A stretch of 64,000 nt of DNA, taken from NCBI GenBank assembly GCA_007119965.1, contig SKOR01000039.1:3157-67156 (forward strand), in the 5' to 3' direction. Both the position numbers and the translations under genes were made by a program. This stretch comes from Syntrophomonadaceae bacterium (GTDB taxonomy: Bacteria > Bacillota > Dethiobacteria > DTU022). The notes under the pieces were generated by a model, which was not told where the DNA came from, made no database searches, and saw nothing but the letters and a program-made list of their open reading frames with translations. Below, one piece after another: positions 29,765 through 64,000 of the stretch (the stretch's first letter is position 1; each line of letters starts with the position of its first letter).

Positions 29765-29765
29765 T

Positions 29766-47967: not shown

Positions 47968-47996
47968 TTGACAACCGGGGTCTCCTGGTTTAGAAT
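47968..47996 (+). promoter_or_regulatory. near-consensus sigma-A promoter of hutH-hutP
   Basis: TTGACA (47968-47973), an exact 17-nt spacer, then TAGAAT (47991-47996). Confidence 0.65.
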
Positions 47997-48001
47997 CTGG
48001 A

Positions 48002-48092
48002 TAGAGATTAGAAAAAATAAATAATGCAGTCCTGCTGCTCATAGTTGACAGACATGAGGGAGCACCGGGGTTTAATCCCGCGTGCTTTTTTT
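48002..48092 (+). promoter_or_regulatory. hut leader: NAG-N4 repeats (candidate HutP binding site) plus an intrinsic terminator
   Basis: TAG 48042, CAG 48049 and GAG 48056 are each separated by 4 nt. Two upstream TAGs lie at 48002 and 48009. The terminator pairs GCAC-CGGG (48062-48069) with CCCG-c-GTGC (48077-48085), a 4+4 bp stem with one bulge, followed by T7 (48086-48092). The hutP gene is present downstream. Confidence 0.55.
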
Positions 48093-48118
48093 ATGTTTTC
48101 TCAGGAGGTGCAGTAATA

Positions 48119-49669
48119 ATGAATTTAGCCGGGGAGGCCAAAAAAGTGACACAGCCGCTGGTTATTAACGGTGAAAAGATTAACGTTAAAGATATTGCCC
48201 GGGTAGCCAGGCAGAATGGGCCTGTTTCTATTTCACCCGGGGCGCTGCAGAGGGTTGAACGTTCAAGGTTAATGCTGGAAAAACTGGTCGATGAAAATGC
48301 CGTTGTATATGGTATTACTACCGGGTTTGGCCGTTTCAGCGATGTGAGCATTTCCAGGGAAGATGCCATAGAGTTGCAGAAGAACCTGATTTCCAGCCAT
48401 GCTGCAGCAGTCGGCGAGCCCCTGCCTGAAGAAGCCGTAAGGGCTGCTCTTTTGCTGAGGTTAAATGCCCTGGCCAGGGGCAACTCCGGGGTCCGCCCGC
48501 TATTGGTGGAGCATCTGGCTGAAGTCCTGAACAGGGGGGTTACACCGCTGATTCCTGAACAGGGTTCGCTCGGCGCCAGCGGTGATTTGGCGCCGCTTTC
48601 ACACCTGGCTCTTGTATTAACCGGTGAAGGGGAAGCCTTTTACCGGGGTGAGAGGATGACCGGGGCAGAAGCTTTGTCGGCGGCAGGGTTGGAACCCATT
48701 ATCCTGGTTGAGAAGGAAGGCCTGGCCCTGGTAAACGGCACCCAGATTATGACTGCAATCGGCTCGCTGGCCTATCATGACGCGGTTAATACTTTTAAGG
48801 CGGCCCTGATTACCGCGGCGCTGACTCTCGAAGCCCAGCTGGCAGTACCCGATGCCTTTGATCCCCTTATTGCTGAAGTAAGACCTTACAGCGGGCACAT
48901 CTATACCGCTGCCGCTATTTTGCGCCTTCTCGAAGGGAGCAGCCTGGTCGGCAGTGATCAGCGCAAGGTGCAGGATGCATACAGCCTGCGCTGCATACCC
49001 CAGGTCCACGGTGCAGCTTCCAATGCCCTGGATTATGTAAATAGCATCCTGGAAGTTGAGATTAACTCGGTCAACGATAACCCTATGCTCTTCCCCGAAG
49101 AAAACAGGGTTCTGTCGGGGGGTAACTTCCACGGCCAGCCTGTAGCCCAGGCGATGGATTTTCTGGCGATTGCCCTAGCTGAGCTGGGCAGTATTGCCGA
49201 GCGCCGCATTGAACGCCTTGTTAACCCCTCTTTAAGCGGTTTGCCTCCATTCCTGGTCAGGGAAGGCGGCCTGAACTCCGGGTTGATGATTGCCCAGTAT
49301 ACCGCTGCTTCATTGGTCAGCGAAAATAAGGTGCTCTGCCACCCGGCCAGTGTCGATTCAATCCCTTCGTCGGCGAACCAGGAAGACCATGTCAGCATGG
49401 GGACTACCGCAGCCCGCAAAGCCCGTAAAGTGGTTGATAATACTGCCATGGTAATCGGCATTGAACTGCTTTCCGCAGCACAGGCCGTTGATTTCAGGGG
49501 GGCGGAAAATCTTGGCCGCGGCACTTCGGCAGCCTACAGATTACTGCGCGAAGAAATTGATTTCCTGGAAAAAGACCGCATTCTCTACCCCCTGATTGAC
49601 AGGGCGGTTAAAATGGTTACCAGCGGCAGGCTGGTCGAAGCAGTGGAAAAGGAAGTCAGCCTTTCCTGA
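48119..49669 (+). CDS. hutH: histidine ammonia-lyase
   Basis: The MIO-forming motif GSLGASGDLAPLSH and the family motifs NGTQ and SVNDNP are present. Size is 516 aa. Confidence 0.95.
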   Translation: MNLAGEAKKVTQPLVINGEKINVKDIARVARQNGPVSISPGALQRVERSRLMLEKLVDENAVVYGITTGFGRFSDVSISREDAIELQKNLISSHAAAVGEPLPEEAVRAALLLRLNALARGNSGVRPLLVEHLAEVLNRGVTPLIPEQGSLGASGDLAPLSHLALVLTGEGEAFYRGERMTGAEALSAAGLEPIILVEKEGLALVNGTQIMTAIGSLAYHDAVNTFKAALITAALTLEAQLAVPDAFDPLIAEVRPYSGHIYTAAAILRLLEGSSLVGSDQRKVQDAYSLRCIPQVHGAASNALDYVNSILEVEINSVNDNPMLFPEENRVLSGGNFHGQPVAQAMDFLAIALAELGSIAERRIERLVNPSLSGLPPFLVREGGLNSGLMIAQYTAASLVSENKVLCHPASVDSIPSSANQEDHVSMGTTAARKARKVVDNTAMVIGIELLSAAQAVDFRGAENLGRGTSAAYRLLREEIDFLEKDRILYPLIDRAVKMVTSGRLVEAVEKEVSLS

Positions 49670-49765: not shown

Positions 49766-50203
49766 ATGGAGCAAATCGGAAGAACGGCGATCATGTATAC
49801 GCTTGCCGATGGTGAAATGGAAGAACAGATTAAAACAATAGCTGTGGAAAACGGTTTTAAAATGATCAAAGGCAAAGTTGGATCGATGAGTACCGAGAAA
49901 ATATTTGCCGCCGTGGAAACAGCGGCCCAGAGGGAAGGGTTGATCGGTAAAGATCATTATCGCGATACCCACGCTCTTTATCACGCCATACTGGAAGCAT
50001 TTACGGGCATCTGCAGGGGGCAGCTCGGTTTAGGAGATATGCTGCGTACCGTGGGTTTAATCTTTACCGTTGTCAGGGGCCCGCGGGCCGGCGATCAGCT
50101 TGATGACGGCGAGTGGCTCGCCGTAGTGCTCTACGGAACTATCGGCGCTCCCATTAAGGGTTACGAACATGAAACAATCGGCCTCGGCCTGAACCATTTA
50201 TAA
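49766..50203 (+). CDS. hutP: hut operon positive regulator HutP (histidine-activated RNA-binding antiterminator)
   Basis: Strong match to Bacillus subtilis HutP as I recall it: GKVGSM, HALYHA, LRTVGLIFTVVRG, LYGTIGAPIKGYEHETIGLGLNHL. Confidence 0.9.
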   Translation: MEQIGRTAIMYTLADGEMEEQIKTIAVENGFKMIKGKVGSMSTEKIFAAVETAAQREGLIGKDHYRDTHALYHAILEAFTGICRGQLGLGDMLRTVGLIFTVVRGPRAGDQLDDGEWLAVVLYGTIGAPIKGYEHETIGLGLNHL

Positions 50204-50291: not shown

Positions 50292-51761
50292 TTGCCTGTT
50301 AAGCTTATTATTCTATCGGAGGTGTTCAAAATAACCGCTTATCGTTCAAATTACAGTCAGCAGCTATCTCCGCAGTTGAAATGGTTCAGCACCAGCCAGC
50401 TGGAAGAAATCCACAGCGCCACTGTCGATGTCCTTGAAAGGGCAGGCGTGCGTGTTGATCACGATGAATCATTAAAACTGCTTAAAGATGCAGGTTGCAT
50501 AGTAAAAGATCGTGTTGTAAAAATACCGGGGTGGCTAATCGAAGAGGCAATCAGGGTAGCGCCTTCTAAGATTAACATTTATAACCGTGAAGGCCGCCCG
50601 GCCATGAATCTGGAAGCCAACAACACTTTTTACGGGGCAGGCTCTGACCTCCCCTTTCATCTGGATTTTGAAACCGGTCAGAGAAGGAATGCTGTTAAAC
50701 AGGATGTTATTAATGCGGCAAGGTTGATCGATAAATTGCCAAACTATGACTTTTCCATGAGTTACGCTATTCCCACTGATGTGCCCGCAGCGAAAGGGGA
50801 CCTGCATCAATTTGCAGCCCAGGTTCAAAACTGCTCCAAACCGATTATTTTCACCTCATTTGACGAGCATAATCTGAAAATAATTATCGATATGGCTGCG
50901 GCGGCAGCAGGCTCCCACGAAGAACTGCGGGACCGCCCTTTTATCATTCTCTACGATGAGCCGATCTCACCGCTTATTCATACCCGCGACGGCCTGGCCA
51001 AGATGTTTGCCTGCATCGAGCATGGCATACCGGTTGTTTATACCCCCGGGGTTGTAGCGGGAGGGACCTGCCCTGTAACCAAGGCCGGCACCATTGTGCA
51101 GATGAACGCGGAAAGCCTCTCGGGGCTGGTTATTGCCCAGCTGAAAAAGAAAGGGGCCCCGATCATTATCGGCGGAGGAGCAACTCCGATGGAGATGAGC
51201 ACTACGGCAACGCTGTACGGTTCACCGGACGCAGCGATGAACTACTGCGCGATGACTGAACTGGCCAGGTTTTACCGCCTGCCTAACTTTACCGAGGCCG
51301 GTTGCTCCAATGCGCCGCTGCCAGATGCCCAGGCCGGCATGGAAGCGTCAACCGGGTTGCTGCTTAACCAGCTCTGCGGGGCGAACCTGGTCCACGATGT
51401 CGGCTACCTGGATGGGGGCAAAACAGGGTCACTGCCCTTCCTGGTTATGTGCGATGATTTCATCAGCGCTGCCAGATATATCGGCGCGGGCACCGTTGTA
51501 AACAGTGATACGATCGGAGCTGATGCCATTATCGATGTTGGGCCTTCGGGGCATTTCCTCGGGGAGGAACATACGATGAAGCATTTTCGAAGCGAAATCT
51601 GGTCGCCCACGGTTTTTAACCGCACCATGTACCAGAACTGGGAGCAGAACGGCCGGAAGGATACTTTTGAACTGGCCCGAGAAAAGGCGGAAGCGCTTCT
51701 CGGGGAAGAGGTCAATGCCCCCGATCAAGAGGTTGTTGAAAAAATCAACAGCATGCTTTAA
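50292..51761 (+). CDS. MttB-superfamily (non-pyrrolysine) methyltransferase, paralogue 1
   Basis: It aligns along its length with the two other paralogues here and with the trimethylamine methyltransferase family pattern (QLEEIHSATVDVLERAGV..., YDEPISPL, GGATPMEMSTTA, GYLDGG). There is no in-frame TAG. The start is uncertain: TTG 50292 has no RBS, GGAGG 50318-50322 abuts GTG 50322, and ATA 50331 lies 8 nt after it. Confidence 0.85.
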   Translation: MPVKLIILSEVFKITAYRSNYSQQLSPQLKWFSTSQLEEIHSATVDVLERAGVRVDHDESLKLLKDAGCIVKDRVVKIPGWLIEEAIRVAPSKINIYNREGRPAMNLEANNTFYGAGSDLPFHLDFETGQRRNAVKQDVINAARLIDKLPNYDFSMSYAIPTDVPAAKGDLHQFAAQVQNCSKPIIFTSFDEHNLKIIIDMAAAAAGSHEELRDRPFIILYDEPISPLIHTRDGLAKMFACIEHGIPVVYTPGVVAGGTCPVTKAGTIVQMNAESLSGLVIAQLKKKGAPIIIGGGATPMEMSTTATLYGSPDAAMNYCAMTELARFYRLPNFTEAGCSNAPLPDAQAGMEASTGLLLNQLCGANLVHDVGYLDGGKTGSLPFLVMCDDFISAARYIGAGTVVNSDTIGADAIIDVGPSGHFLGEEHTMKHFRSEIWSPTVFNRTMYQNWEQNGRKDTFELAREKAEALLGEEVNAPDQEVVEKINSML

Positions 51762-52099: not shown

Positions 52100-53668
52100 T
52101 TGTTTAAAAAAACATTATTTTTATTGGCAGTAATCCTGATGGCCGGTATGCTGGTTGTATCCTGCGCCCCGGATGACCCTGTTGTAGATGAAGAACCCGA
52201 AGAAGCGATTTCTGAAAAGCACGGCGGGGTACTGCGCACTGCGACATATGCTCCCGGAAACACAGACCCCGCGTTTTTCGGAACTGTTCCTGATGAACAT
52301 ATCGGCCGGCAGTGGGGAGAGTTTCTGGTTTTTATCGATGAAGGCAATGAGCCTGACCCGGACCGCAGCCTTGCCGAAAGCTGGGAAGTAGATGAGGAGG
52401 CAAGGGTCTGGACTTTCAATCTCCGTGAGGGAATTCTTTTCCATGACGGCAAAGAGCTGACCTCGCGTGACGTACAGTTCACCTTTGATCGCCTCCGTGA
52501 TCCCGATGTTGGAGCAGCTACCGTAACAACATATGCTAACATCAACGAGATCAGCACACCCGATGATTATACCGTGGTTTTTGAACTCGAAGATTCCAAT
52601 GTCGACTTTTTATTCGATATCTTTGATTACCATGCAATAATTGTTGACGCCGACAACGACAATTTCGCAACGAACTTAAACGGCACCGGCCCTTTTATGG
52701 TTGAAAGCTATTCACCTGAAGACCGGATTGTTTTAACCCGTAATCCGGACTACTGGATGAACGATGCAGATGGCAATCAGCTTCCTTACCTTGACGGGTT
52801 GGAAATTATATTCCTGAGCGAATCATCGGCACAGATTGAAGCGCTGCGCGGCGGCCAGATCGATTACCTGATCTACCTGCCAACCGAGTTTATCCCGCTC
52901 CTTGAAGAAGACCCGGGTATTGAAGTATACCAGACACCGTCGAATACTTCCTATGTCCTGCGTATGCGCTCCGATGAAGGCCCGGCCAGTGATGTCCGTG
53001 TCCGTCAGGCTCTTAAAGCCGGCACAGACCGCTCTGCCATCCTTGATGGAGCAATCGATGGCTACGGGACAGTCGCCCGCGACACTCCGATCGGCCCTGC
53101 ATATGGGGATTTCTACCTTGACGTGCCTGAGCTGGAACGTGATGTAGAGAAGGCAGTTGAGCTCCTGGAGGAAGCCGGTTATGGCGATGGGCTTGATATC
53201 ACCATAACCACCCAGGAATCATCACCAGTTCCCGCTATCGCGACGATCTGGAAAGAGCAGATGGCTGAAATCGGCGTTAACGTTGACATTCAACTCGTCC
53301 CTTCAGATGTTTACTACTCACCGGAAGGTTGGCTGGAAGTGCCTTTCGGCATTACCGACTGGGGGGCAAGGTCATACCCGCAGCCTTACCTGGATCTTGC
53401 TTATGTCTGTGATGGACAGTGGAATGAGAGCCACTGGTGTGATCCTGAACTGGACGAGCTGGCTGCAGCTGCTGCCAGGGAAATGGATCATGATGAACGA
53501 GTCCGCCTCTACCATGAAATCCAGGAGATTTTTATTGAGCGCGGCCCGATTATTATCCCCTTCTTTATCAATAACCTTTGGGGAGCCAGCTCCGACCTGA
53601 AAGGCCTTAACCCGCCAATTACCCTTGGCACAGCAATGGATCTGCGCGTTGTTTATTTCGAAAGATAA
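52100..53668 (+). CDS. ABC transporter substrate-binding lipoprotein, family 5
   Basis: Lipobox MLVVSC and the family-5 SBP pattern (GTGPFMVESYSPEDRIVLTRNPDYW). TTG 52100 lies 8 nt after GAGGAGG. Confidence 0.9.
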   Translation: MFKKTLFLLAVILMAGMLVVSCAPDDPVVDEEPEEAISEKHGGVLRTATYAPGNTDPAFFGTVPDEHIGRQWGEFLVFIDEGNEPDPDRSLAESWEVDEEARVWTFNLREGILFHDGKELTSRDVQFTFDRLRDPDVGAATVTTYANINEISTPDDYTVVFELEDSNVDFLFDIFDYHAIIVDADNDNFATNLNGTGPFMVESYSPEDRIVLTRNPDYWMNDADGNQLPYLDGLEIIFLSESSAQIEALRGGQIDYLIYLPTEFIPLLEEDPGIEVYQTPSNTSYVLRMRSDEGPASDVRVRQALKAGTDRSAILDGAIDGYGTVARDTPIGPAYGDFYLDVPELERDVEKAVELLEEAGYGDGLDITITTQESSPVPAIATIWKEQMAEIGVNVDIQLVPSDVYYSPEGWLEVPFGITDWGARSYPQPYLDLAYVCDGQWNESHWCDPELDELAAAAAREMDHDERVRLYHEIQEIFIERGPIIIPFFINNLWGASSDLKGLNPPITLGTAMDLRVVYFER

Positions 53669-53817
53669 TAAACAGGCTTGTTATGATCCGGAAGTGAGTG
53701 AAGTTAGCTAGGTCTCCCCTGCCTCTCCGGGGCAGGGTGTCCGCAGCGGTATCCCGGCGAGCGCTCAACGCCCGCCGGGACGCTGCTGATAAAATATCTC
53801 CTCGAGGGAGGTAGCAA

Positions 53818-54708
53818 ATGGCAGCTTCCGAACAAAAAATTCAGAAAAAGAAGATAACCGTTTCACCCCTAAAAAAATTTTTCAGGCGCCTTCGACGCTA
53901 CCCGACCACCTTTATCGGAATTTCGATTGTCATTATATTTTTACTGATCGCTGCTTTCGGCCCGCTGATTGCCCCGTACCATTATTCGCAGCAGGATCTG
54001 CTCCAGCGCCTGCAGCCGCCTTCTGATGAACATATTTTTGGCACAGACCAATTTGGACGTGACATCTTCAGCCGGATCCTGGTCGGCAGCCGGGATGTTT
54101 TGCTGATAGCCGGTTCCGGAACCGCTTTGGCTGTTTTCTCCGGCCTGCTCCTGGGGCTGTTTTCCGGTTACATAGGGGGCCTTTTTGACGAAATTGTCAT
54201 GCGCATCATGGATGTAATCCTGTCGATCCCCCCGCTCCTCCTGGCTATGGTGATTTTATTTGCCCTCGGCCCCTCGAGGCTCAACGTAGTGATAGTCGTC
54301 GGATTTCTCTATATCCCGATGGTGGCCAGGGTTGTCAGGAGCGTTGTTTTGGAGTTAAAGACAAGGCAGTTTGTTGAAGCGGCCCGGCTGCGCGGCGAAA
54401 CCAGGCTCTACGTGCTCTATAAAGAGATTCTGCCTAATGTCCTGCCTCACCTGGCGGTTGAAGCCTCAATGCGTTTTTCCTATTCCATTTTTTTAGTTGC
54501 TTCTTTGGGCTTCCTGGGCCTCGGAGTCCAGCCGCCCAGTCCCGACTGGGGCCTGATGGTTGGCGAAGCAAGAACCTGGTTTTACCAGGCCCAGTGGGTG
54601 CTCTTTTTCCCTGCCGGTGCCATAGCGACCCTGGTTGTCGGCGTTGGCTTTATGAGCGACGGATTGCGGAGGATGCTGCTGCCGGGAGGTGTCACCGATG
54701 ATGGATAA
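53818..54708 (+). CDS. ABC transporter permease (DppC-like)
   Basis: IFGTDQFGRDIFSRILVG and the EAA-loop FVEAARLRGE. ATG follows GGGAGG. Confidence 0.9.
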   Translation: MAASEQKIQKKKITVSPLKKFFRRLRRYPTTFIGISIVIIFLLIAAFGPLIAPYHYSQQDLLQRLQPPSDEHIFGTDQFGRDIFSRILVGSRDVLLIAGSGTALAVFSGLLLGLFSGYIGGLFDEIVMRIMDVILSIPPLLLAMVILFALGPSRLNVVIVVGFLYIPMVARVVRSVVLELKTRQFVEAARLRGETRLYVLYKEILPNVLPHLAVEASMRFSYSIFLVASLGFLGLGVQPPSPDWGLMVGEARTWFYQAQWVLFFPAGAIATLVVGVGFMSDGLRRMLLPGGVTDDG

Positions 54709-56776
54709 CGGAAAAGTGTTGGATGTAGATAACCTGACTGTAACCTATATGACCGAAAAAGGACCTTTAGATGTTGTGCGCAGCGTATCCCTGCAAATTG
54801 CACCCGGTGAGATCTACGGCCTGGTCGGCGAATCAGGCTCCGGCAAAACCACTTTAGCAAGGGCAGTAGTGCGCTACCTGCCCTCAAATGGGAAGATCAC
54901 CGGCGGCACGGTCAGCCTGTCGGGTACAGACTTGAGCACCCGGTCCCAAAAAGAGATCCGCGGCATCTGGGGTTCGCGGATGACTATGGTCCACCAGGAC
55001 CCGAATGCCGCGATTAACCCGTCGATGATGATCGGCGAGCAGATTGCTGAAATGACCCGCACCCACATGGGGTTGTCCAGAAAGGAATCGCGTGAGCGGG
55101 CTCTCGAGATGCTGAACAAGGTGCGTATGCCCGATCCTGAATCAGTAGCCAGGCGCTATGCCCACCAGCTCTCAGGCGGTATGCTACAGAGGGTGCTGAT
55201 TGCCACGGCAATGGCCACCAACCCTGAATTTATAATTATGGACGAGCCGACTACCGCTTTAGATGTCACCACCGAAGCGGTGATTTTAGACTTAATTCAT
55301 GAACTGATGGACGAATACAATACTGCCATCCTGTTTATCACCCACAACCTTGGTGTGATAGCGAGAATATGCGACCGGATCGGCGTTTTATATGCCGGCG
55401 AAATTATGGAAGAAGGGCCGATTCATGATGTTTTCAAAGCAAGGCTGCATCCTTACACCCGCGGCCTGTTAGGCTGCGTGCCCAGGGTGGATGCCAACAA
55501 AAAGGAGATTAGCTTAAGCGCCATCCCCGGCTATATCCCCCGTCCCGACGAACTGCCCGAAGGTTGTATTTTCGGCCCCCGCTGCGAGCTGGTCGAAGCG
55601 GCCTGCCGCGAAGCGCGTCCCCCGGTAGTCTCGGTCGGCCCGGATCACCTGAGCGCCTGCCGTCGCCATGAAATACTCAGGGACAGGTCCGAAAAGGCGG
55701 ACGAGACACGCGAGGAAACAATCGGAGATGAGCTCGGCCATATTGTCCTGGAAGCGCGAAACATTAAGAAGTATTTTCCTTTTTCTGGGGGCTTAGGTTC
55801 GATCTGGCAGCGCAGGCGCAGCGAGCTGAAAGCGGTAGATGATATTTCCGTACGGATGCGCAGCTCTTTTACAATGGGAATTGTTGGAGAATCGGGCTGC
55901 GGCAAGACTACCCTGGCGCGCTGCATAGCAGGCCTTGAAGAAGCTACCGCGGGCGAGATAGAACTGGAAGGCCAATTGCTGGATTACTCGGTGAATAAGC
56001 GGCCTCGCGCTATCCTGCAGAAAATCCAGATGGTCTTTCAGAACCCGGATGCGTCTTTAAACCCGCAGCACCCGGCCGGGGACAGTGTGGCCAGGCCTCT
56101 GATTCTGCTGCGCAATATGGACAGAAAGCAGGTCCGGGAAAAAGTAGCCGAGCTGTTTAAGGCAGTCAGCCTGCCAGCTGACTACATCGACCGCCTGCCG
56201 CATGAACTGAGCGGCGGTGAAAAACAGCGTGTGGCGATTGCCCGGGCTTTTGCTGCCGATCCGGCCCTGATGATCTGTGACGAACCGATTTCTTCGCTGG
56301 ACGTTTCGGTCCAGGCTTCCCTGATGAATCTGCTGGCCGAACTTCAGGACAAATCGAAGACCTCTTATCTCTTTATATCGCATGATCTTGCAGCAGTGCG
56401 CCACATTTCGGACTGGATAGCTGTGGTTTACCTGGGGCGTCTCTGGGAAATAGGTTCGGCGGAAGATGTTTTTATTCCACCCTATCATCCTTATACAGAG
56501 GCGCTGCTATCAGCAATACCCATTCCAGATCCCGACATCAGGCAGGATCGCATCCGGCTCAAAGGCAGCGTGCCTAGCTCGCTGAATATTCCCCCGGGCT
56601 GCCGTTTCCATACCCGCTGCCCCCGCAAAGTCGGCGAAATCTGCGAGACAACGGAGCCGCCCTGGCAGGATATGGCCGACGGCCACCGAATCTGCTGCCA
56701 TATCCCCCTGGAAGAGCTAAAAGAGCTGCAGGGTGACGGGCTGCTGAAAACAGCAGGCCTAAGGGGGAATAACTGA
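54698..56776 (+). CDS. fused double ATP-binding protein of a peptide-type ABC transporter (DppD-DppF fusion)
   Basis: Two complete cassettes are present: GESGSGKTT/LSGGMLQR/IIMDEPT and GESGCGKTT/LSGGEKQR/MICDEPISSLD. ATG 54698 lies 8 nt after GGAGG. Confidence 0.9.
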   Translation: MMDNGKVLDVDNLTVTYMTEKGPLDVVRSVSLQIAPGEIYGLVGESGSGKTTLARAVVRYLPSNGKITGGTVSLSGTDLSTRSQKEIRGIWGSRMTMVHQDPNAAINPSMMIGEQIAEMTRTHMGLSRKESRERALEMLNKVRMPDPESVARRYAHQLSGGMLQRVLIATAMATNPEFIIMDEPTTALDVTTEAVILDLIHELMDEYNTAILFITHNLGVIARICDRIGVLYAGEIMEEGPIHDVFKARLHPYTRGLLGCVPRVDANKKEISLSAIPGYIPRPDELPEGCIFGPRCELVEAACREARPPVVSVGPDHLSACRRHEILRDRSEKADETREETIGDELGHIVLEARNIKKYFPFSGGLGSIWQRRRSELKAVDDISVRMRSSFTMGIVGESGCGKTTLARCIAGLEEATAGEIELEGQLLDYSVNKRPRAILQKIQMVFQNPDASLNPQHPAGDSVARPLILLRNMDRKQVREKVAELFKAVSLPADYIDRLPHELSGGEKQRVAIARAFAADPALMICDEPISSLDVSVQASLMNLLAELQDKSKTSYLFISHDLAAVRHISDWIAVVYLGRLWEIGSAEDVFIPPYHPYTEALLSAIPIPDPDIRQDRIRLKGSVPSSLNIPPGCRFHTRCPRKVGEICETTEPPWQDMADGHRICCHIPLEELKELQGDGLLKTAGLRGNN

Positions 56777-57723
56777 TGGGCCCCTACCTGATAAGAAGAT
56801 TTGGTTTTATCCTGCTGACCCTGTTTCTGGCCTCGTTGATTATCTTTTCGATCACCCAGTTTCTGCCCGGTGATATTGCCCAGGTTATTTTGGGGCAGTT
56901 CGCCACCGAAGCGGCCATAGCGAACCTGCGTGAAGAGCTCGGTTTGAATGATCCCCTGCACATGCAGTATCTAAATTGGGCCGGAAACTTTATTCGCGGC
57001 GACTGGGGCGATTCCCTGGTCAGCCGAACGCCGGTCCGTCCGATCGTCACCCAGCGTCTCGTTAACTCGGCCATGCTGGCGGGCCTGGCCCTATTGATTT
57101 ATGTGCCCCTGGGGATAATTTTAGGGGTGATTGCCGCCCTGAAACGGGATAAACTGCCCGATCAGCTGATCACCGGAGTTTCAATGGCTTTCGTCGGCCT
57201 GCCCGAATTTGTAAGCGGGCTGCTGCTGATTAGCTTTTTAGCCATCGGGTTGGGCTGGTTCCCGGCCAACTCATCGATCGACCCCGATTCGACTTTTCTC
57301 GAATCGCTGCCCTACCTGATCCTGCCCGCGATTACGGTTAGTTTGACCGGCCTGGGCTATATTGCCCGGATGACCCGCTCGGGAACCATCGATGTTCTGC
57401 GCGCCGATTATGTTCGTGCGGCAGAATTAAAAGGGCTCTCCGGCCGGTCGGTCCTGATCCGGCACGTTCTGCGCAATTCGCTTTTACCTACAGTGACCGT
57501 TGTGGCCATGGGGATCGGCTGGCTGCTTGGCGGCTTGATCGTTACCGAGGCGGTTTACGGTTATCCCGGCCTCGGGAGGCTGCTGGTTTACGGTATCCAG
57601 CGCCAGGACCTGCCCATTATCCAGGCCGGATCGATGATCGTGGTCGCCGTTTACAGCCTGTCGAACCTGGCAGCAGATATCCTTTACGGGTTGCTAAACC
57701 CGAGGATTCGAGTCGGAAAGTGA
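56776..57723 (+). CDS. ABC transporter permease (DppB-like)
   Basis: The N-terminus MGPYLIRRFGFILLTL and the EAA-loop YVRAAELKGLS. The start overlaps the upstream stop. Confidence 0.9.
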   Translation: MGPYLIRRFGFILLTLFLASLIIFSITQFLPGDIAQVILGQFATEAAIANLREELGLNDPLHMQYLNWAGNFIRGDWGDSLVSRTPVRPIVTQRLVNSAMLAGLALLIYVPLGIILGVIAALKRDKLPDQLITGVSMAFVGLPEFVSGLLLISFLAIGLGWFPANSSIDPDSTFLESLPYLILPAITVSLTGLGYIARMTRSGTIDVLRADYVRAAELKGLSGRSVLIRHVLRNSLLPTVTVVAMGIGWLLGGLIVTEAVYGYPGLGRLLVYGIQRQDLPIIQAGSMIVVAVYSLSNLAADILYGLLNPRIRVGK

Positions 57724-58198
57724 GGTGTCCCGGAACATAAACGGAGAACAATGCAAAAGTTGCCTGCTTCAGCGGTGAGCTGAATTGGAATAACCCGCCT
57801 GACTTCTGATCGCGAGCTCGGGCCGGATCGAATTCTTGAACAACGTTTTTCCGATCTGGAAATGCCGGCCTTCTAAGATAAAATTGAGATTAGTTTTCGA
57901 TTTGGAAATGGACCGGGTTTATAAATAATGAAGGAAATGGACCTGCCTGTCCACAGTGCAGTTGCAATAACCCTTCGGGACACGAGCCGCTTCGATTCAG
58001 GCCTGGTGGAAAGAGGTGCCGACCGCTGTGTTCAAAAGGCACTCGAAAAAAACCGCCTTTTACTGCTCATGCAGCAAACCCGGCCGAGTTTGTTCAGACG
58101 ATTGACCCGGCCTGGTATTTCGAACAGATCTCCGGCGTACGCCGGCTGATAGGATATATAAAATAACAGCATAGAATAATTTAACGGAGGTAAACTAT

Positions 58199-59650
58199 AT
58201 GTCGTTTTCTGTACATGCCCTGCCCCGTATTCAGCTTTTCAGCAGTGAACAGTGTGAGGCGCTTCACCTTGCCACACTGGATATTTTGAGAAGGACCGGG
58301 ACACGGGTCTACCACCCCGAAGCCCTGCACCTCCTGCAGGAAGCAGGGGCAACTGTAAGTGATGATACGCTGGTCCGTTATCCGCCGTCTCTTGTAGAGT
58401 GGGCCCTGAAGCAGGCTCCTTCTACTGTTGCGCTATGCAAGAGGGGCAGCAGAAGGGCGGCGCTCAAACTGGAAGCGATGAATGTTGCTTTCGGGACAGG
58501 TTCGGATTGCTGCAACTACCTCGATCCCCGTACGGGTGAGCAGCGTCTCTTCACAACAGACGACATTATTGACTGCATCCACCTGGTTGATGCCTGTGAC
58601 AATCTTGATTTTTGCATGTCCATGGGGATCCCTTCAGACTTATACAGGAATGATCCCTACCGGTACCAGTTTTCGCTGCTCATTCAGAATACCTCGAAGC
58701 CGATTGTCTTTGTGGCCGGCAGCCGGGAAGACTGTGAAGCAATCGTTGCCATGGCTGCTGCTGCAGCCGGCGGGTTTGCTAACTTGAGATTAAACCCCTC
58801 GATCCTATGCTACAGCCAGGTAACCACCCCCCTGGTCCATAATCGGGATTCAACCGCCAAGCTGCTTTACCTGGCTGAAATTGGCATACCCATAGTCCAC
58901 CAGCCTTCTCCGATGATCGGGGGCACTGCACCGATGAGCATGGCCGGGGCCCTGGCGATCGGCAATGCTGAAATGCTTTCCGGGATGGTTATCCACCAGC
59001 TGAAGCAGCAGGGAGCACCGTTCCTCTACGGCGGTGGGCAGCACCACATGGACATGCAGACAACTATCAGCGTTTACGGCGCTCCGGAATTTGATCTGCT
59101 AAGGGTGGCGGTTGCAGAAATGGCCCGCTATTACAACCTGCCCGGCTGGGGCTATGCCGGCTGCACCGACAGCTGCGTTTTCGATGAGCAGGCGGCAGCC
59201 GATGCCACAGCATCGATCATGACCGCCTTACTCAGCGGTCAAAACCTGGTCCATGATATTGGCTACATGGAAGCCGGCCTTACTATTTCACCTGAAATGA
59301 TTCTCTTCTCCGATGAAATAATCGGCAGGATGAGATCTTTCTCCCGTGGAATCTTTCTCGACGCAGAATCATTTGCTTTAGACCTGATTGACGAGGTAGG
59401 TCCGGGCGGCACCTTCCTGACCACTGAGCATACTTTCCAACATTTTCGCGATTTCTGGCAGCCCGCTTTCTTTAACCGCCACCGCAGGGGCGAGTGGGTT
59501 AGTTCGGGCAGCCGGCGCATGAATGACCGGATCAGGGAAAAAACAATCGCTATTATGGAATCCCATCAACCGGAAGCGCCGCCTGATTATCTGCGCGAAG
59601 AGGTTGCTTATATCATGAGCCAATCGGAAAGTTTTAAAAGAGGAGCTTAA
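58199..59650 (+). CDS. MttB-superfamily (non-pyrrolysine) methyltransferase, paralogue 2
   Basis: SEQCEALHLATLDILRRTG, SQVTTPL, GGGQHHMDMQTT and GYMEAG are present, with no in-frame TAG. ATG 58199 follows ACGGAGG at good spacing. Confidence 0.88.
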   Translation: MSFSVHALPRIQLFSSEQCEALHLATLDILRRTGTRVYHPEALHLLQEAGATVSDDTLVRYPPSLVEWALKQAPSTVALCKRGSRRAALKLEAMNVAFGTGSDCCNYLDPRTGEQRLFTTDDIIDCIHLVDACDNLDFCMSMGIPSDLYRNDPYRYQFSLLIQNTSKPIVFVAGSREDCEAIVAMAAAAAGGFANLRLNPSILCYSQVTTPLVHNRDSTAKLLYLAEIGIPIVHQPSPMIGGTAPMSMAGALAIGNAEMLSGMVIHQLKQQGAPFLYGGGQHHMDMQTTISVYGAPEFDLLRVAVAEMARYYNLPGWGYAGCTDSCVFDEQAAADATASIMTALLSGQNLVHDIGYMEAGLTISPEMILFSDEIIGRMRSFSRGIFLDAESFALDLIDEVGPGGTFLTTEHTFQHFRDFWQPAFFNRHRRGEWVSSGSRRMNDRIREKTIAIMESHQPEAPPDYLREEVAYIMSQSESFKRGA

Positions 59651-59714
59651 AAACAGGTAGGGGCGTGCGGCAGCCCGGTTAAGGCCTGATAAACCCAGGG
59701 AAAGGAAGTTATCC

Positions 59715-62006
59715 ATGATCAGATCAATAACAGCGCCCGATCCAAAACAGGCGCCTGCCTCTGGCTGTTTTCCCGGGATCGATTATGATCAGAATCCCGA
59801 AGTGTGGGCCAAGGCTGCAGGCAGGGCTGTTTACGGAACAGATCTTAAAATGCCGGGTATGCTGTACGGAAAAATACTGCGCAGTCCCTGCCCCCATGCC
59901 AGGATCAAAAAAATTGACACCGCGGCGGCGGAGGCAATGCCGGGGGTGCGGGCTGTGCTTACGGGAGAAGGCCTGGGCTGCAAACCCTTCGGAATTGTTG
60001 TTGATGATGAATTGCCCCTGGCCGTTGACAGGGTGCGCTACATCGGAGATGAAGTAGCCTGCGTCGCTGCAGTGGATCTGCAAACTGCAGAACGGGCCGT
60101 TCAGTCGATCAGGGTTGAATATGAAGAACTCCCTGCCGTTTTTTCACCTGCAGAGGCCCTGGAGGAAAATGCTCCGCAGCTGCACAGGGATTTCCCGGGA
60201 AATGTTGCCTGGCAGAGAAATATCTCACGAGGCGACAGCGAAGCGGCCTTCCGGGAGGCAGACCATGTAGTGGAAAATACTTTTACCGTCCCTGCGGTCC
60301 ATCCCACTTACCTTGAACCGATTTCCTGCGTGGCGGAAAGCGACCGCTGTGACGGGCTGGTTTTACATACCGCCCTGCAGTCTCCTGACAGTGTCAGGGC
60401 TATAGTCGCTAAAGTTTTGGAACTGCCTCTTTCCCGGGTGCGCGTTATCGGCCCGGTGATGGGCGGCGGTTTCGGGGGCAGGGTTTACGGAAACCTGAAA
60501 CTTTATATTTTAAGTTCCCTCCTGGCCATGAAAACCGGCTGGCCGGTCAAGATGCAGCTGACCCGTGAAGAAGAATTTACCGTCGGGCGCCCCATGATAG
60601 CTGCTGAATTAAAAATGAAAATGGCCCTGCGCAGTGATGGGACGATCCTGGCCCGCGAAGCGGAGATCATTACCGATAACGGTGCCTACAGCGCCCAGGC
60701 ACCCTGGGTTTCGAACACAATCTCCGAGCGCAATGATTCTGTCTACCGTATTCCAGCAGTTAAAACAGGTGTGCGCCTTGTCTATACCAACAAAGTGCCC
60801 ACCGGCCAGTACAGGGCTTACGGCAACCAGGCAGCAAATTTCGCCACCGAATCCTTAATTGATATGGCTGCTAAAAAACTCGGTATTGACCCGCTTGATT
60901 TACGTTTAAAGAACTGCATCCGCGAAGGTGATGTCAGTGTGCACGGTTTGCAGATCAACAGGTGCGCCCTGGACGAGTGCCTGAAAGCCGCAGCAAAAAA
61001 AATCGGCTGGGACCGGAAAAAAGCAGGGCGTGGTTATGGCCTCAGTGCGGCGATCCACGCTAACGGGAGCCTGATATTTAACAAAAAATTCCGGGGGGCT
61101 GCAGCACAGGCCCGCCTTGAACTGGATGGCAGGGTTACTGTTTTTACAGGCGAGCAGGACTACGGCCAGGGAGCCCATGCCGCTTTTGCCCGTATTGCAG
61201 CAAAAGCGCTCGGCCTTAATCCTGATTTAATTACCGTTCAGTCAAGGGATACCATGCACTCTCCCTATTCACTGGGAGCCCTGGCCATGCGCCAGACGAC
61301 CATCGGGGGCAAAGCGGTTCAACTGGCGGCTGAAAACCTGAAAGAAAAGATTGTTCAACTGGCAGTTTCGCTCTCGGGTGAGCCGGCAACAATGGAAAAT
61401 GGCGTTGTCAGGGGTTCTTCAGGCATGGTTTTTGATCTTGCCGCTATTGCTTACGATTACCACAGCCAGACCAGCGGGCTCAGCCTGCTCGGCGAAGGAA
61501 AATATGTCCCCGAAAAAAGCGATTACGACGACAGCGGTTACGGTAATATATCTGTAACATATTCTTTTGCCGCCCACGCTGCTGAAGTGGAAATTGATCG
61601 GGACACCGGGGCCCTGACAGTGCACCGTATTGTGGCTGCCCATGATTCGGGCCGGATCGTAAACCAGGTATCGGCACGCGGGCAGGTCTACGGGGGGATA
61701 ACCCAGGGTCTCGGAATGAGCTGTTATGAAGGATACCTATTTGAAACAGGCCGGGTGGCGAATGCCTCGCTGGCTGACTATAAAATACCTACTGCCCTGG
61801 ATATTCCTGAAATTGAAGAGATTTTTATTGAGAATGAAGATCCGGCCGGTCCCTACGGGGCAAAAGGGTTGGGGGAAATAGTAATGGTCCCGGTCCTGGG
61901 GGCGATCGCCAATGCCGTTGCCGATGCGGCAGGGGAATGGGTAACCGACCTGCCGATTACTGCAGAAAAAATATACCAGGCCATGGCCGGATGGGAGTGT
62001 CAATAA
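59715..62006 (+). CDS. xanthine dehydrogenase/aldehyde oxidase-family molybdopterin-binding large subunit
   Basis: An a/b-hammerhead N-domain (GRAVYGTDLKMPGMLYGKILRSPCPHARI), GGGFGG, QYRAYGN, and the C-terminal GAKGLGE carrying the catalytic Glu. Confidence 0.88.
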   Translation: MIRSITAPDPKQAPASGCFPGIDYDQNPEVWAKAAGRAVYGTDLKMPGMLYGKILRSPCPHARIKKIDTAAAEAMPGVRAVLTGEGLGCKPFGIVVDDELPLAVDRVRYIGDEVACVAAVDLQTAERAVQSIRVEYEELPAVFSPAEALEENAPQLHRDFPGNVAWQRNISRGDSEAAFREADHVVENTFTVPAVHPTYLEPISCVAESDRCDGLVLHTALQSPDSVRAIVAKVLELPLSRVRVIGPVMGGGFGGRVYGNLKLYILSSLLAMKTGWPVKMQLTREEEFTVGRPMIAAELKMKMALRSDGTILAREAEIITDNGAYSAQAPWVSNTISERNDSVYRIPAVKTGVRLVYTNKVPTGQYRAYGNQAANFATESLIDMAAKKLGIDPLDLRLKNCIREGDVSVHGLQINRCALDECLKAAAKKIGWDRKKAGRGYGLSAAIHANGSLIFNKKFRGAAAQARLELDGRVTVFTGEQDYGQGAHAAFARIAAKALGLNPDLITVQSRDTMHSPYSLGALAMRQTTIGGKAVQLAAENLKEKIVQLAVSLSGEPATMENGVVRGSSGMVFDLAAIAYDYHSQTSGLSLLGEGKYVPEKSDYDDSGYGNISVTYSFAAHAAEVEIDRDTGALTVHRIVAAHDSGRIVNQVSARGQVYGGITQGLGMSCYEGYLFETGRVANASLADYKIPTALDIPEIEEIFIENEDPAGPYGAKGLGEIVMVPVLGAIANAVADAAGEWVTDLPITAEKIYQAMAGWECQ

Positions 62007-62875
62007 TGAGCTACCTGTACCCCTCATCCCTGGAAGAAGCGCTGGGCATCTTACGGGACGGCAGCGGCCGGGCCAGGGTTATAGCCGGGGCAACTGACAT
62101 TTTTTTGCAGCGCCTGCCTCACAGCCTGGTTGACCTGACCGCCCTGCCGGCATTGTCCGGGATAAAAGAAGAAAGCGGTTTGATTACCATCGGGGCGGCG
62201 GTTACCCACTCACAGGCGGCGGCTTCCCCTGTCATCCTGGCCGGGGCCCAGGCCCTGGCTGAAGGATGCGCCCGGGTCGGATCGCCGCAGATCCGCAATG
62301 CCGGGACCCTGGGCGGAAACATTGTCAATGCCGCCCCGGCTGCCGACGCGGCCGTCGCCCTGGCTGCCCTGGGTGCCAGGGCCCGGATAGTTGACATTAA
62401 AGGCTTGACCCGTGAAGAAGCGGTTGAAGATCTTTACAGGACACACAACCGCTCCCTGGTAGACAGCAGCTCCGAGATACTGGTTGAGCTGATCATCAAA
62501 TCATGCGGCATCAATGAAGGTTCCGCTTTTACACGTTTCGCTGCCCGCAACGCCCTCGCCCTGCCGCTGGTTAATGCCGCGGCCGCGGTTAAGGTTGAAA
62601 ACGGCCTGGTTAAAGAAGCCCGGCTGGTTGTCGCCCCGGTCAAACCGGCGCCGACCCGCCTGCAGCGGGCGGAAGAAATGCTGATCGGGATGCCTGTTAA
62701 CCGGGAGACCCGGCTGGCGGTTGAAAAAGCGGCCGCCTCGGAGGTTGAGGTGCGCAGCAGCCTGCTGCGCTGTTCGGCCCGCTACCGCCTTCATTTGGTC
62801 GGGGTCCTTGTTGGCCGGGCCTTAGAAACTGCGGCACAAAGAGCGCAGCAGAGGAAGAGAGGTAATGATTCTTGA
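62006..62875 (+). CDS. XDH-family FAD-binding (medium) subunit
   Basis: RVIAGATDIF and AGTLGGNIVNAAPAADA motifs. ATG 62006 overlaps the TAA of the large subunit. Confidence 0.85.
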   Translation: MSYLYPSSLEEALGILRDGSGRARVIAGATDIFLQRLPHSLVDLTALPALSGIKEESGLITIGAAVTHSQAAASPVILAGAQALAEGCARVGSPQIRNAGTLGGNIVNAAPAADAAVALAALGARARIVDIKGLTREEAVEDLYRTHNRSLVDSSSEILVELIIKSCGINEGSAFTRFAARNALALPLVNAAAAVKVENGLVKEARLVVAPVKPAPTRLQRAEEMLIGMPVNRETRLAVEKAAASEVEVRSSLLRCSARYRLHLVGVLVGRALETAAQRAQQRKRGNDS

Positions 62876-63354
62876 AACAGCAGATCATAATGTTCCAGTT
62901 AAACGGCGAACCGCTGGAGATTTATGCCGATCCTGCAGAAAGCCTGCTGGCAATACTCCGCGAAAAACTTGGTCTCTACGGAACCAAGGCCGGCTGCGGA
63001 AAAGGTGAATGCGGGGCCTGTACGGTCCTGGTAGACGATCAGGCTCAGAACTCCTGCCTTATCCCGGCCGGTAAGGTGCAGGGACGCAGGGTGGAGACCA
63101 TCGAAAACCTTTCACGGGGAGATGTCGTTCACCCGATCCAGGAAGCATTTGTTGAAAAAGGAGCTGTGCAGTGCGGCTTCTGCAGCCCGGGAATGATTAT
63201 GTCCGCTTACGCCCTGCTCAAAAGCAGTCCGCAACCCGCCCCTGAAGACGTAAAGACCGCCATTTCCGGAAATCTCTGCCGCTGCAGCGGTTACAAGCAG
63301 ATCGAGGAGGCAGTTTTATGCGCGGGGGATAAAATGAAAAACAGGGAGTCGTAG
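62872..63354 (+). CDS. XDH-family [2Fe-2S] (small) subunit
   Basis: CGKGECGACTV and CGFCSPGMIM....CRCSGY cluster motifs. The start is TTG 62872 (overlapping the upstream TGA) or ATG 62890. Confidence 0.88.
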   Translation: MKQQIIMFQLNGEPLEIYADPAESLLAILREKLGLYGTKAGCGKGECGACTVLVDDQAQNSCLIPAGKVQGRRVETIENLSRGDVVHPIQEAFVEKGAVQCGFCSPGMIMSAYALLKSSPQPAPEDVKTAISGNLCRCSGYKQIEEAVLCAGDKMKNRES

Positions 63355-63356
63355 TT

Positions 63357-64000
63357 ATGCATATAAACAATTTAGCCCAGGGCAGCATTGGCCTGAACAT
63401 CATGACAGAAGACCAGGTTGAACGGATTCACAACGGGACTCTGCATGTCCTCGACAGGGTCGGGGTAAAAGTATTTGAGCCGGAATCGCTGGAAATCCTG
63501 CATGGCAGTGGCGCGAAAATTAATGGAAACCTGGCCAAGATCCCGCCCTGGATGGTTGAGGATGCCCTGCAATCAGCGCCAAAAATCGTATCCCTGGCGG
63601 CACGGGACGGTTCACGGGCGATGAGCCTGGAGAAAAAGAATATTTATTACGGCACCGGATCGGAAGTGCCCTTCACTATTGACCTGGAGAACGGAAGGCG
63701 CCGGAAAGTGATAAAAAGCGATGTCTGTAATTCGTCGCGCCTGAGCGATAATCTTGAAAATATTGACTTTGTCATGTCCCTGGGCCTTATCTCTGATGTT
63801 CCGGTCGATTTCTCGGATTTATTCCAGTTTGAAGCTATGCTCGCCAATACGAAAAAGCCGATCCTCTTTACCTGCTACAGCCGCCGCAACCTGGAAGCAA
63901 TTATTGATATGGCCTCACTGGCTGCCGGGAGCAGGAAAGAATTGAAGGACCGTCCGAGTATTGCCCTTTACGCTGAGCCGACCTCGCCGCTTGTTCACTC
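63357..64000 (+). CDS. MttB-superfamily (non-pyrrolysine) methyltransferase, paralogue 3 (3' end outside the window)
   Basis: This ORF is absent from the ORF track because it has no stop in the window. My hand translation from ATG 63357 gives MHINNLAQGSIGLNIMTEDQVERIHNGTLHVLDRVGVKV...YAEPTSPLVH, which is colinear with paralogues 1 and 2. GGGAG lies 8 nt upstream, and the start is 2 nt after the small-subunit stop. Confidence 0.85.
   Translation, partial: MHINNLAQGSIGLNIMTEDQVERIHNGTLHVLDRVGVKVFEPESLEILHGSGAKINGNLAKIPPWMVEDALQSAPKIVSLAARDGSRAMSLEKKNIYYGTGSEVPFTIDLENGRRRKVIKSDVCNSSRLSDNLENIDFVMSLGLISDVPVDFSDLFQFEAMLANTKKPILFTCYSRRNLEAIIDMASLAAGSRKELKDRPSIALYAEPTSPLVH

Follow-up and report, generated by a model that had tools for sequence, protein, structure and literature searches.

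Organization of the mttB-xdhLMS locus

A 64,000 nt stretch of genomic DNA from a Syntrophomonadaceae bacterium (contig SKOR01000039.1; hereafter the window) ends with five co-oriented genes that join MttB-family methyltransferases to a three-subunit molybdenum hydroxylase of the xanthine dehydrogenase (XDH) family. All lie on the + strand. They are mttB2 (58199-59650; 483 aa; PF06253 MTTB, E 3.9e-83), xdhL for the molybdopterin-binding large subunit (59715-62006; 763 aa; Pfam Ald_Xan_dh_C, MoCoBD_1 and MoCoBD_2), xdhM for the FAD-binding subunit (62006-62875; 289 aa; Pfam FAD_binding_5 and CO_deh_flav_C), xdhS for the two-[2Fe-2S] subunit (62872-63354; 160 aa; Pfam Fer2 and Fer2_2), and the 5′ part of mttB3 (63357-64000; PF06253 MTTB, E 3.8e-30), which runs off the window end. 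An earlier note on this DNA had described the genes as tightly packed, and every junction reads as it gave them: a 64 nt gap between mttB2 and xdhL (59651-59714), a 1 nt stop/start overlap, TAATG, between xdhL and xdhM (62004-62008), a 4 nt overlap, TTGA, between xdhM and xdhS with a TTG start (62872-62875), and a 2 nt gap before mttB3 (63355-63356). A site scan of the + strand found no terminator-like sites between the five genes.

These genes belong to a longer unit with the order HutP-type attenuator, hutH, hutP, mttB1, ABC transporter, mttB2, xdhLMS, mttB3, mttB4 and a formimino-tetrahydrofolate cyclodeaminase-like gene. Within the window, mttB1 (50292-51761, + strand; PF06253, E 4e-94) encodes a further MttB-family methyltransferase of the non-pyrrolysine (non-Pyl) type. 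It is followed on the same strand by an importer that Pfam identifies as Opp/Dpp-type (52100-57723), consisting of a binding protein (52100-53668), a permease (53818-54708), a fused double ATPase (54689-56776) and a second permease (56776-57723). The DNA continues on a 189 kb ENA contig (L001, 99.87% identical), where full-length mttB3 encodes 481 aa and is followed by mttB4 (477 aa) and then by genes for a cyclodeaminase-like protein (FTCD_C), an alpha/beta hydrolase, a CBS-pair protein, an MFS transporter, a thioredoxin-DsbD protein and a 2-oxoacid:ferredoxin oxidoreductase. The gene content and its conserved order, the linkage to hut genes in six lineages, the attenuator and an atypical MttB active-site signature lead us to propose, with about even confidence, that these five genes form the centre of a larger locus for the breakdown of an N-methylated histidine derivative, most likely a histidine betaine of the hercynine/ergothioneine type.

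The 475 nt gap upstream of mttB2 was considered as a regulatory region of its own and rejected, since it contains the remnant of a decayed MmgE/PrpD-family gene (57799-58047, + strand; tblastn, 46% identity to residues 324-406 of the intact gene in locus L023). Intact copies lie between the permease gene and mttB2 or xdhL in L023, L085, L087 and L132. An Rfam search of this gap and of the hutH leader gave no match.

Conservation of the xdh-mttB coupling

Orthologues of XdhL form a group of about 70 clusters at 56-81% identity, after which identity drops to 50% or less. A profile scan covering one genome per species recovered about 40 species-level metagenome-assembled genomes (MAGs) that carry orthologues at 64-76% identity in the same gene order, and the arrangement recurs in many metagenome contigs. 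These MAGs are labelled Syntrophomonadaceae, Bacillota or Dethiobacteria, and soda-lake sediments are the source of many of them. The consensus gene order reads [hutH-hutP]-mttB1-[Opp ABC]-[PrpD-like]-[mttB2]-xdhL-M-S-[mttB3]-mttB4-FTCD_C-hydrolase-CBS.

The adjacency of MttB and XDH genes is therefore not peculiar to one genome. Wherever 1.6 kb or more of sequence is available downstream (34 loci), the xdh genes are without exception followed directly by a gene for an MttB protein, with a median gap of 51 nt. The symmetrical mttB-xdhLMS-mttB arrangement emphasized earlier is general in its downstream half but not in its upstream half, because just 11 of 38 loci have mttB2 next to xdhL on its upstream side. 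Flanking by two MttB genes is thus a lineage variant of a general xdh-mttB coupling. None of the more distant XdhL relatives at 50% identity or less (L035, L039, L041 and others) has an MttB neighbour, which indicates that the coupling is specific to this orthologue group and to a separate XDH found in L097, L109 and L134 (see below).

Five loci (L020, L025, L075, L081 and L082) have an intact xdhL followed directly by mttB3, without xdhM and xdhS; either the other subunits are borrowed from elsewhere or the enzyme is in the process of being lost. The nearest outgroup XdhLMS, at 50% identity, is encoded on a 5.9 kb contig from a Clostridia MAG (L035; region 1627-5884), where FTCD_C follows directly and no MttB gene is present on the contig. 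This arrangement hints that the link between XDH and cyclodeaminase is older than the link to MttB.

MttB proteins outside the characterized clades

The products of mttB1, mttB2 and mttB3 all match PF06253, and full-length MttB3 and MttB4 match TIGR02369 over nearly the whole model. The four paralogues share 38-54% identity with one another and 27-32% with MtgB and the pyrrolysine-containing MttB (Pyl-MttB). The proteins do not qualify as trimethylamine methyltransferases of the Pyl type, since there is no in-frame UAG (position 334) and TIGR02369 scores reach 373-420 bits against a cut-off of 525. The pyrrolysine column instead holds a Cys codon, and the enzymes are non-Pyl, as the earlier note had stated. 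All four paralogues have this Cys, and so do nearly all of 75 orthologues, the exceptions being Ala in three MttB4-type proteins and Leu in two divergent proteins labelled MttB2.

The substrate site of MtgB consists of Y97, R312, H348 and F356. MtgB uses Y97, R312 and F356 for its acidic quaternary amine, and every member whose function is known has R312 (PMC13080624). We mapped these residues onto an alignment of the four paralogues and the 75 orthologues. The corresponding positions in the paralogues are Ser, Phe (Trp in MttB2), His and Gly, so that only H348 is kept. The His is followed by Asp, and a library-wide search found the resulting S-[FW]-C-H-D-G signature (S-W-C-H-D-G in MttB2) to be common to many 50%-identity clusters. 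MttB2 is the most divergent paralogue and occurs in about one third of loci. The motif of the characterized acidic-amine members (MtgB, MtpB, MtcB, MtyB and MthB) is absent, which places the four MttBs in the superfamily but outside all characterized clades, those for simple betaines included. One might speculate that Cys, His and Asp serve as ligands of a metal.

Several features are shared with the MtgB/MtgC/MtgA system of Desulfitobacterium hafniense and with MtpB, MtcB, MtyB and MthB of Eubacterium limosum, which are likewise non-Pyl PF06253 proteins of anaerobic Bacillota. Related clusters of other lineages hold an MtgC-like corrinoid protein (TIGR02370, 230 bits vs a cut-off of 215) and an MT2 of the Pterin_bind family, and the expected mechanism would again be Co(I) attack on an N-methyl group. 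In contrast, the paralogues are only 27-30% identical to MtgB, carry S, F/W and G in place of Y97, R312 and F356, and have Cys at the Pyl/Leu position. Their clusters also differ in having three to four paralogues each, no corrinoid protein in this lineage, and linkage to hut genes and to a molybdenum or tungsten (Mo/W) enzyme. Pyl-MttB of Methanosarcina barkeri (PDB 7xcl) belongs to the same family, gives MttB1 its best PDB score (200 bits) and shares the Gly at the F356 position, but it is 29-32% identical and differs in the Cys for pyrrolysine exchange, the missing in-frame UAG and the TIGR02369 score below cut-off.

The start codon of mttB1 appears to be non-canonical. An ATA or ATC codon lies 6-7 nt past a perfect GGAGGTG (window 50318-50333, and also in L017, L020, L022, L026, L029, L036 and L042), and the peptide I-x-x-Y-R-S-N-Y is conserved from this codon onward. 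An upstream GTG start is excluded in L022 because an in-frame TAA directly precedes the ATC. In the window the true start is probably the ATA at 50331, after the GGAGGTG.

XdhLMS within the XDH family

XdhLMS has the three subunits with the expected domains and the catalytic Glu of the molybdenum hydroxylase family. This residue, E721 in the GLGE motif of XdhL, shows no variation among 26 orthologues, and in the alignment it falls on the Glu of HcrA. XdhS carries 8 Cys in two 2Fe-2S motifs. XdhM contains 3 Cys in its 289 residues and is without the Fe-S insertion of the reductase beta subunit. The best PDB match of XdhL is the alpha subunit of 4-hydroxybenzoyl-CoA reductase (4-HBCR; 1rm6; 399 bits over residues 33-757), and the next group, at about 270-300 bits, comprises CoxL-like proteins, 6-hydroxypseudooxynicotine dehydrogenase and quinoline oxidoreductase. 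Scores are lower for the aldehyde oxidoreductases MOP (249 bits) and PaoC (221 bits), for nicotinate dehydrogenase (222 + 150 bits; 3hrd_A and 3hrd_B) and for true xanthine dehydrogenases (165-191 bits).

XdhL falls below every NCBIfam equivalog cut-off. Xanthine dehydrogenase proper was rejected on scores of 526, 498, 456 and 380 bits against cut-offs of 780, 916, 784 and 830 bits, respectively, for models that include XdhA, PucD and Se-dependent XDH. Assignment as 4-HBCR fails because XdhL scores 555 bits vs 995, the beta model matches only residues 3-107 of XdhM, and the [4Fe-4S] insertion is missing. Nicotinate dehydrogenase of the Eubacterium barkeri type is split into NdhL and NdhM, whereas XdhL is a single 763 aa protein without nicotinate-fermentation neighbours. 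The position of the purine-binding Arg880 of bovine XDH was not used, since its alignment with XdhL needs a 4-residue gap and is ambiguous. With all scores below cut-off and no named match, XdhLMS belongs to the XDH family but to no named enzyme; by the curated cut-offs it is not an ordinary xanthine, nicotinate or aldehyde enzyme.

HcrABC of Thauera aromatica (PDB 1rm6), which includes the closest solved relative of XdhL, is also a three-subunit XDH-family enzyme of anaerobes and shows that the family can run reductively, removing a ring substituent. Unlike HcrABC, XdhLMS lacks the [4Fe-4S] loop of HcrB in its XdhM subunit and has no benzoyl-CoA pathway genes nearby.

The hut genes and a putative HutP-responsive attenuator

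Upstream of hutH lies a promoter-like site, TTGACA-17-TAGAAT (47968-47996, + strand), which is the best promoter match of the region (11/12). It is followed on the same strand by an element with the features of a HutP-type attenuator (48027-48095), namely a conserved CAGTCCTGCTGCTCATAG element with spaced UAG/GAG triplets and, after it, an intrinsic terminator. Downstream lie hutH, encoding histidine ammonia-lyase (HAL; 48119-49669, + strand; TIGR01225 equivalog, 696 bits vs 539), with the 4-methylideneimidazole-5-one (MIO) motif ASG at residue 153, and hutP, encoding a histidine-responsive RNA-binding antiterminator (49766-50203, + strand; NF002838 equivalog, 190.6 vs 155 bits; Pfam HutP). 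An alignment of leaders shows that TTGACA...TAAAAT/TAGAAT sites recur upstream of orthologous hutH genes. The CAGTCCTGCTGCTCATAG element is present once in the window and has exact matches in seven other loci, and scanning and folding identified the terminator as a hairpin followed by a U-run (z -3.19). The combination of promoter, conserved UAG-triplet element and terminator before hutH has the anatomy of a HutP-controlled attenuator. Together with the HutP and HutH equivalogs, this leader, with its putative HutP site, indicates HutP-regulated histidine utilization. A HutP site between hutP and mttB1, as in Bacillus subtilis, was rejected because this spacer has no conserved UAG array or terminator and is too short in two loci (about 16-40 nt in L017 and L020).

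The remaining hut genes lie at the start of the window, all on the + strand. They are hutU for urocanase (11-1897; Pfam Urocanase_N, Urocanase and Urocanase_C), whose 5′ end is probably cut by the window start, hutI for imidazolonepropionase (1951-3216; TIGR01224 equivalog, 507 bits vs a cut-off of 298), and a glutamate formiminotransferase gene (3224-4120; Pfam FTCD_N and FTCD) with no adjoining cyclodeaminase gene. A tblastn search found no FTCD_C within the 64 kb window, and the copy after mttB4 is the only one in the 73 kb examined. Compared with the hut operon of B. subtilis, the HutP equivalog, the leader with UAG-repeat element and terminator, and HutH, HutU and HutI are the same. The differences are the order hutH-hutP with the attenuator upstream of hutH, the location of hutU and hutI 45 kb away, a formiminotransferase/cyclodeaminase route instead of HutG, and the MttB genes downstream of hutP.

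The MIO motif (GASGD) is intact in all HutH homologues. These homologues would thus require that a free alpha-amino group be produced, and the idea that an ergothionase-type lyase replaces HAL was rejected on the same evidence.

Related clusters in other Bacillota

MttB1 is orthologous, at 57-61% identity, to hut-linked MttB proteins of other Bacillota, cultured strains among them; over the clusters described next, the MttB1-type genes span 57-65% identity. Zhaonella formicivorans has an OpuC-type ABC transporter, an Fe-S protein (Fer4), an enzyme of the aldehyde:ferredoxin oxidoreductase (AFOR) family, a sigma54 activator, two MttBs, HutH, HutU, HutI, FTCD_N and FTCD_C. The clusters of Desulfosporosinus meridiei and D. 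orientis encode an orphan XDH FAD subunit, a sigma54 activator, an OpuC transporter, an Fe-S protein, two MttBs, a corrinoid protein, HutU and HutI, and that of Desulfurispora thermophila encodes HutU, an OpuC transporter, an AFOR, two MttBs and a corrinoid protein. In Desulfitibacter the genes encode MttB, HutH, MttB, an Fe-S protein (Fer4), HutI, FTCD_N, FTCD_C and HutU. In Dehalobacterium, genes for a corrinoid protein and an MT2 accompany the MttB1-type gene, and hut genes are absent.

A metagenome scan added 80 further MttB1-type loci. Genes for histidine utilization are present in 38 of the 49 loci with at least 8 kb of flanking DNA, and the linkage of hut and MttB genes occurs in six lineages with differing gene orders. 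Among 30 loci of other Bacillota, 17 encode an OpuAC binding protein, 20 a corrinoid protein, 18 an Fe-S protein of about 320 aa and 21 a component of a Mo/W enzyme. Three loci (L097, L109 and L134) carry a non-orthologous, XdhA-like XDH, 34% identical to XdhL, between an MttB pair and hutU. The coupling of MttB, a pterin-dependent redox enzyme and hut genes therefore arose, or was kept, with non-orthologous enzymes. The AFOR of these clusters fits the curated model for aldehyde:ferredoxin oxidoreductase over its N-terminal third only (185 bits vs a cut-off of 868).

A conserved 238 aa protein without Pfam or NCBIfam matches is also encoded in some of these loci (L069, positions 16458-17174, and L072, L097, L109 and L134). 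In clusters of the Desulfosporosinus type its gene is flanked either by hutU and hutI or by the MttB pair and the XDH genes.

Transport and corrinoid functions

Sister loci have a divergent OpuC-type quaternary-amine ABC system in place of the Opp/Dpp-type block. By PDB comparison, the OpuAC binding proteins fall in the quaternary-amine family, as does EgtUC, which binds ergothioneine; this membership fits the route proposed below. EgtUC is not their best match, and the comparison does not discriminate between substrates.

A corrinoid protein is encoded in none of 19 Dethiobacteria-type loci, compared with 20 of the 30 clusters from other Bacillota. Genes of the MT2 type are found inside sister clusters, where they belong to the URO-D family (L022, L026, L030 and L020) or to Pterin_bind (L033), in support of methyl transfer. 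The earlier note expected a corrinoid protein, an MT2 and a RamA just past nt 64000, but these genes are not present in the roughly 10 kb of L001 beyond the window.

The only Rfam match in the window and L001 is a cobalamin riboswitch (11547-11723, 123 bits), which precedes genes for a BtuF-like binding protein and ABC components. These are followed, at 11852-22149, by genes for nucleotide-loop and lower-ligand steps of cobalamin synthesis (CobU, CobD/CbiB, CobS, CobQ, CobT and a CobC-like protein). Such a gene set fits an organism that depends on corrinoid enzymes.

A proposed route from histidine betaines to histidine

The recurrent occurrence of a quaternary-amine importer, at least two MttBs, a corrinoid protein, an MT2, a HAL with intact MIO motif and the other Hut enzymes is best accommodated by a substrate that becomes histidine once it is demethylated. 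This class is favoured by the hutH-hutP attenuator unit directly upstream, by the FTCD_C gene downstream and by the five other lineages in which MttB1-type genes have hut neighbours. Hercynine stands out as the candidate. The Opp-type importer and the M20 hydrolases encoded in the window would also allow for histidines methylated on a ring nitrogen, or for dipeptides of these. Of the substrates suggested earlier, the context favours methylated histidine derivatives. Trigonelline or nicotinate and methylated purines are not supported, as no fermentation genes of either kind were found and the large subunit is not of the split nicotinate dehydrogenase type.

From this context we infer the substrate, the number and order of the demethylations, and the reaction and direction of XdhLMS. 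The compound would be imported by an ABC system, of the Opp type here and of the OpuC quaternary-amine type in sister loci and other lineages. The products of mttB1 to mttB4 would then pass N-methyl groups to a corrinoid protein, whose gene presumably lies outside the cluster in this lineage and is part of it in others, and from there to tetrahydrofolate. The product, histidine, would activate HutP and be degraded by HutH, HutU, HutI, the formiminotransferase and the cyclodeaminase-like protein of the cluster. XdhLMS would act on the imidazole ring in a two-electron step, for which C2 is the most plausible site, before or beside demethylation; removal of the 2-thione sulfur of ergothioneine is one example.

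The imidazole C2 corresponds to purine C8, the classical target of XDH. Its oxidation level is that of a formyl carbon, and this may be the reason that enzymes of the AFOR and XDH types can stand in for one another. If the thione of ergothioneine were removed reductively, the reaction would be a thio-analogue of the one catalysed by the closest solved relative. The earlier note had placed ring hydroxylation after demethylation. This order is not borne out, since a complete classical Hut pathway is present and the imidazole ring of a histidine product would need no molybdenum hydroxylase. The XDH-family enzyme more likely acts before histidine forms, or on a side branch. No pterin enzyme is needed for hercynine, and its variable presence fits an accessory step.

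A more specific version of this proposal is that XdhLMS, running in reverse as 4-HBCR does, strips the 2-thione sulfur of ergothioneine as sulfide to give hercynine, a task that would fall to an unrelated XDH or a tungsten AFOR-family enzyme elsewhere, and that the Cys-type MttBs, a new branch of their superfamily, then strip all three N-alpha-methyl groups onto corrinoid to give histidine without trimethylamine. Ergothioneine and hercynine would then have a complete route of anaerobic breakdown. We rate this full scheme as unlikely.

Described routes for histidine betaines use ergothionase, a HAL-family lyase that releases trimethylamine, and the histidine betaine trimethylammonia-lyase of Shewanella woodyi (bioRxiv 10.1101/2025.08.13.670108). 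The proposed route would share with them the compound class, the feed into urocanate or histidine metabolism and the anoxic conditions. It would differ in that the known routes split off trimethylamine in one step, by a lyase of which none is seen here, whereas the methyl groups would be moved one by one onto corrinoid without release of trimethylamine.

Weighing the alternatives

Several observations weigh against a histidine betaine pathway. R312, Y97 and F356 of MtgB are replaced in all four MttBs, so that a betaine carboxylate would have to be bound differently. The importer of this genome is of the Opp type rather than the betaine type, and no corrinoid protein, Pterin-type MT2 or RamA is encoded in the 73 kb seen for this genome. 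The attenuator unit is not uniformly joined to the MttB genes: a hairpin-bearing spacer of 120-230 nt separates hutP and mttB1 in several loci, and hutH-hutP is not upstream of mttB1 in some orthologous loci (L023, L024 and L027). The Mo/W enzyme is variable, being absent from Desulfitibacter, reduced to an orphan FAD subunit in Desulfosporosinus and represented by XdhL without XdhM and XdhS in five loci, which makes its step non-essential to the core pathway. Furthermore, FTCD_C resembles the methenyl-tetrahydrofolate cyclohydrolase FchA and might serve methyl oxidation instead of histidine breakdown.

In one alternative the genes share one-carbon metabolism and not a substrate. The MttBs would demethylate a common osmolyte-type methylamine unrelated to histidine, the hut and FTCD_C genes would be nearby only because both processes load tetrahydrofolate with C1 units, and XdhLMS would have a separate role. 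The FchA-like score of FTCD_C is as expected in that case, as are OpuC-type importers, which are generic betaine systems with non-discriminating PDB matches, and the Dehalobacterium genes, where an MttB1-type gene occurs with a corrinoid protein and an MT2 in the absence of hut genes; 11 of the 49 loci likewise have no hut gene. A mere shared need for tetrahydrofolate does not readily account for the interleaving of MttB and hut genes (MttB-HutH-MttB in Desulfitibacter), for the single sigma54 activator or HutP leader that heads mixed clusters, or for an association that recurs in six lineages with different gene orders. Moreover, the motif that goes with acidic betaines such as glycine betaine is missing from these MttBs. 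We regard this explanation as unlikely.

XdhLMS could also be an aldehyde oxidoreductase that acts on a pathway aldehyde, such as formaldehyde from non-corrinoid N-demethylation, and passes electrons to ferredoxin as would the AFORs that occupy its place in Zhaonella and Desulfurispora. AFOR and XDH-family enzymes do interchange in similar clusters, both families include aldehyde oxidoreductases, and the Fe-S protein of about 320 aa lies alongside in 18 of 30 loci. This role seems improbable to us, since XdhL is nearer to 4-HBCR than to MOP or PaoC, the AFOR of the clusters fits its curated model so partially, and neither corrinoid-dependent demethylation nor the Hut pathway releases an aldehyde. 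The scheme first suggested for this locus, in which the MttBs demethylate an N-heteroaromatic compound other than histidine (trigonelline, homarine, N-methylnicotinamide or a methylated purine) and XdhLMS hydroxylates the freed ring, draws on the tight and conserved mttB-xdhLMS-mttB packing and on the established ability of XDH-family enzymes to hydroxylate such rings. The 50%-identical XdhLMS of L035 and the FTCD_C after it would also be expected of a ring fermentation that produces formimino groups. Nevertheless, no cluster contains nicotinate- or purine-fermentation genes, the recurrent partners are hut genes, and XdhL scores low against the split nicotinate dehydrogenase and true xanthine dehydrogenases and below the XdhA and PucD cut-offs. 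We consider this scheme improbable.

Other features of the region

About 6.1 kb past the window end, an in-frame TGA (L001, 17246-17248) splits a thioredoxin-DsbD/CcdA fusion at the first Cys of its redox motif (FYARW-TGA-SAC). An 87 aa open reading frame (ORF) and the DsbD ORF share one frame around this codon, and the same split is found in other loci. The interrupted fusion is likely a selenocysteine (UxxC) protein.

Upstream of hutH, at 45971-47089, the window encodes a QueG-like protein with Fer4_16 and HEAT repeats that scores 178 bits against the cut-off of 200 for epoxyqueuosine reductase. Relatives of QueG are B12-dependent Fe-S enzymes. The gene is kept upstream of hutH, with genes for an MFS transporter and a BKACE protein, in L076, L086, L087 and L099. 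Lysine-fermentation genes at 27108-30521 and 47142-47951 encode the alpha and beta subunits of lysine 5,6-aminomutase and a BKACE protein, which falls below the cut-off for 3-keto-5-aminohexanoate cleavage enzyme (305 vs 382 bits). A 350 aa ORF at 27108-28160 has no Pfam match, and a PucR-type regulator is encoded at 25543-26817 on the strand opposite to the lysine-fermentation genes.

Implications

The enzyme families at this locus are known; their combination, the MttB branch and the XDH subfamily appear not to have been described. In full-text searches of the openly accessible literature, we found no paper that links MttB in such a way to xanthine dehydrogenase, hercynine, ergothioneine or urocanate, and none combining histidine betaine with corrinoid methyltransferases. 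The statement that no described pathway couples the MttB and XDH chemistries thus holds for the searchable full-text literature.

The MttB superfamily has thousands of uncharacterized non-Pyl members, and to our knowledge only a handful of substrates are known, all of them acidic quaternary amines. A hut-tied branch with a different active-site signature would gain a testable substrate class. Because the clusters are carried by cultured organisms (Z. formicivorans, D. meridiei, D. orientis and Desulfurispora thermophila), the hypothesis can be tested directly. Both hercynine and ergothioneine occur widely, and their anaerobic breakdown by the known routes releases trimethylamine, a compound of medical and climatic interest. 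If our proposal is correct, a corrinoid-dependent route would divert histidine betaines from trimethylamine, and the recurrent Mo/W enzyme would add a new reaction on the imidazole ring to the XDH and AFOR families.

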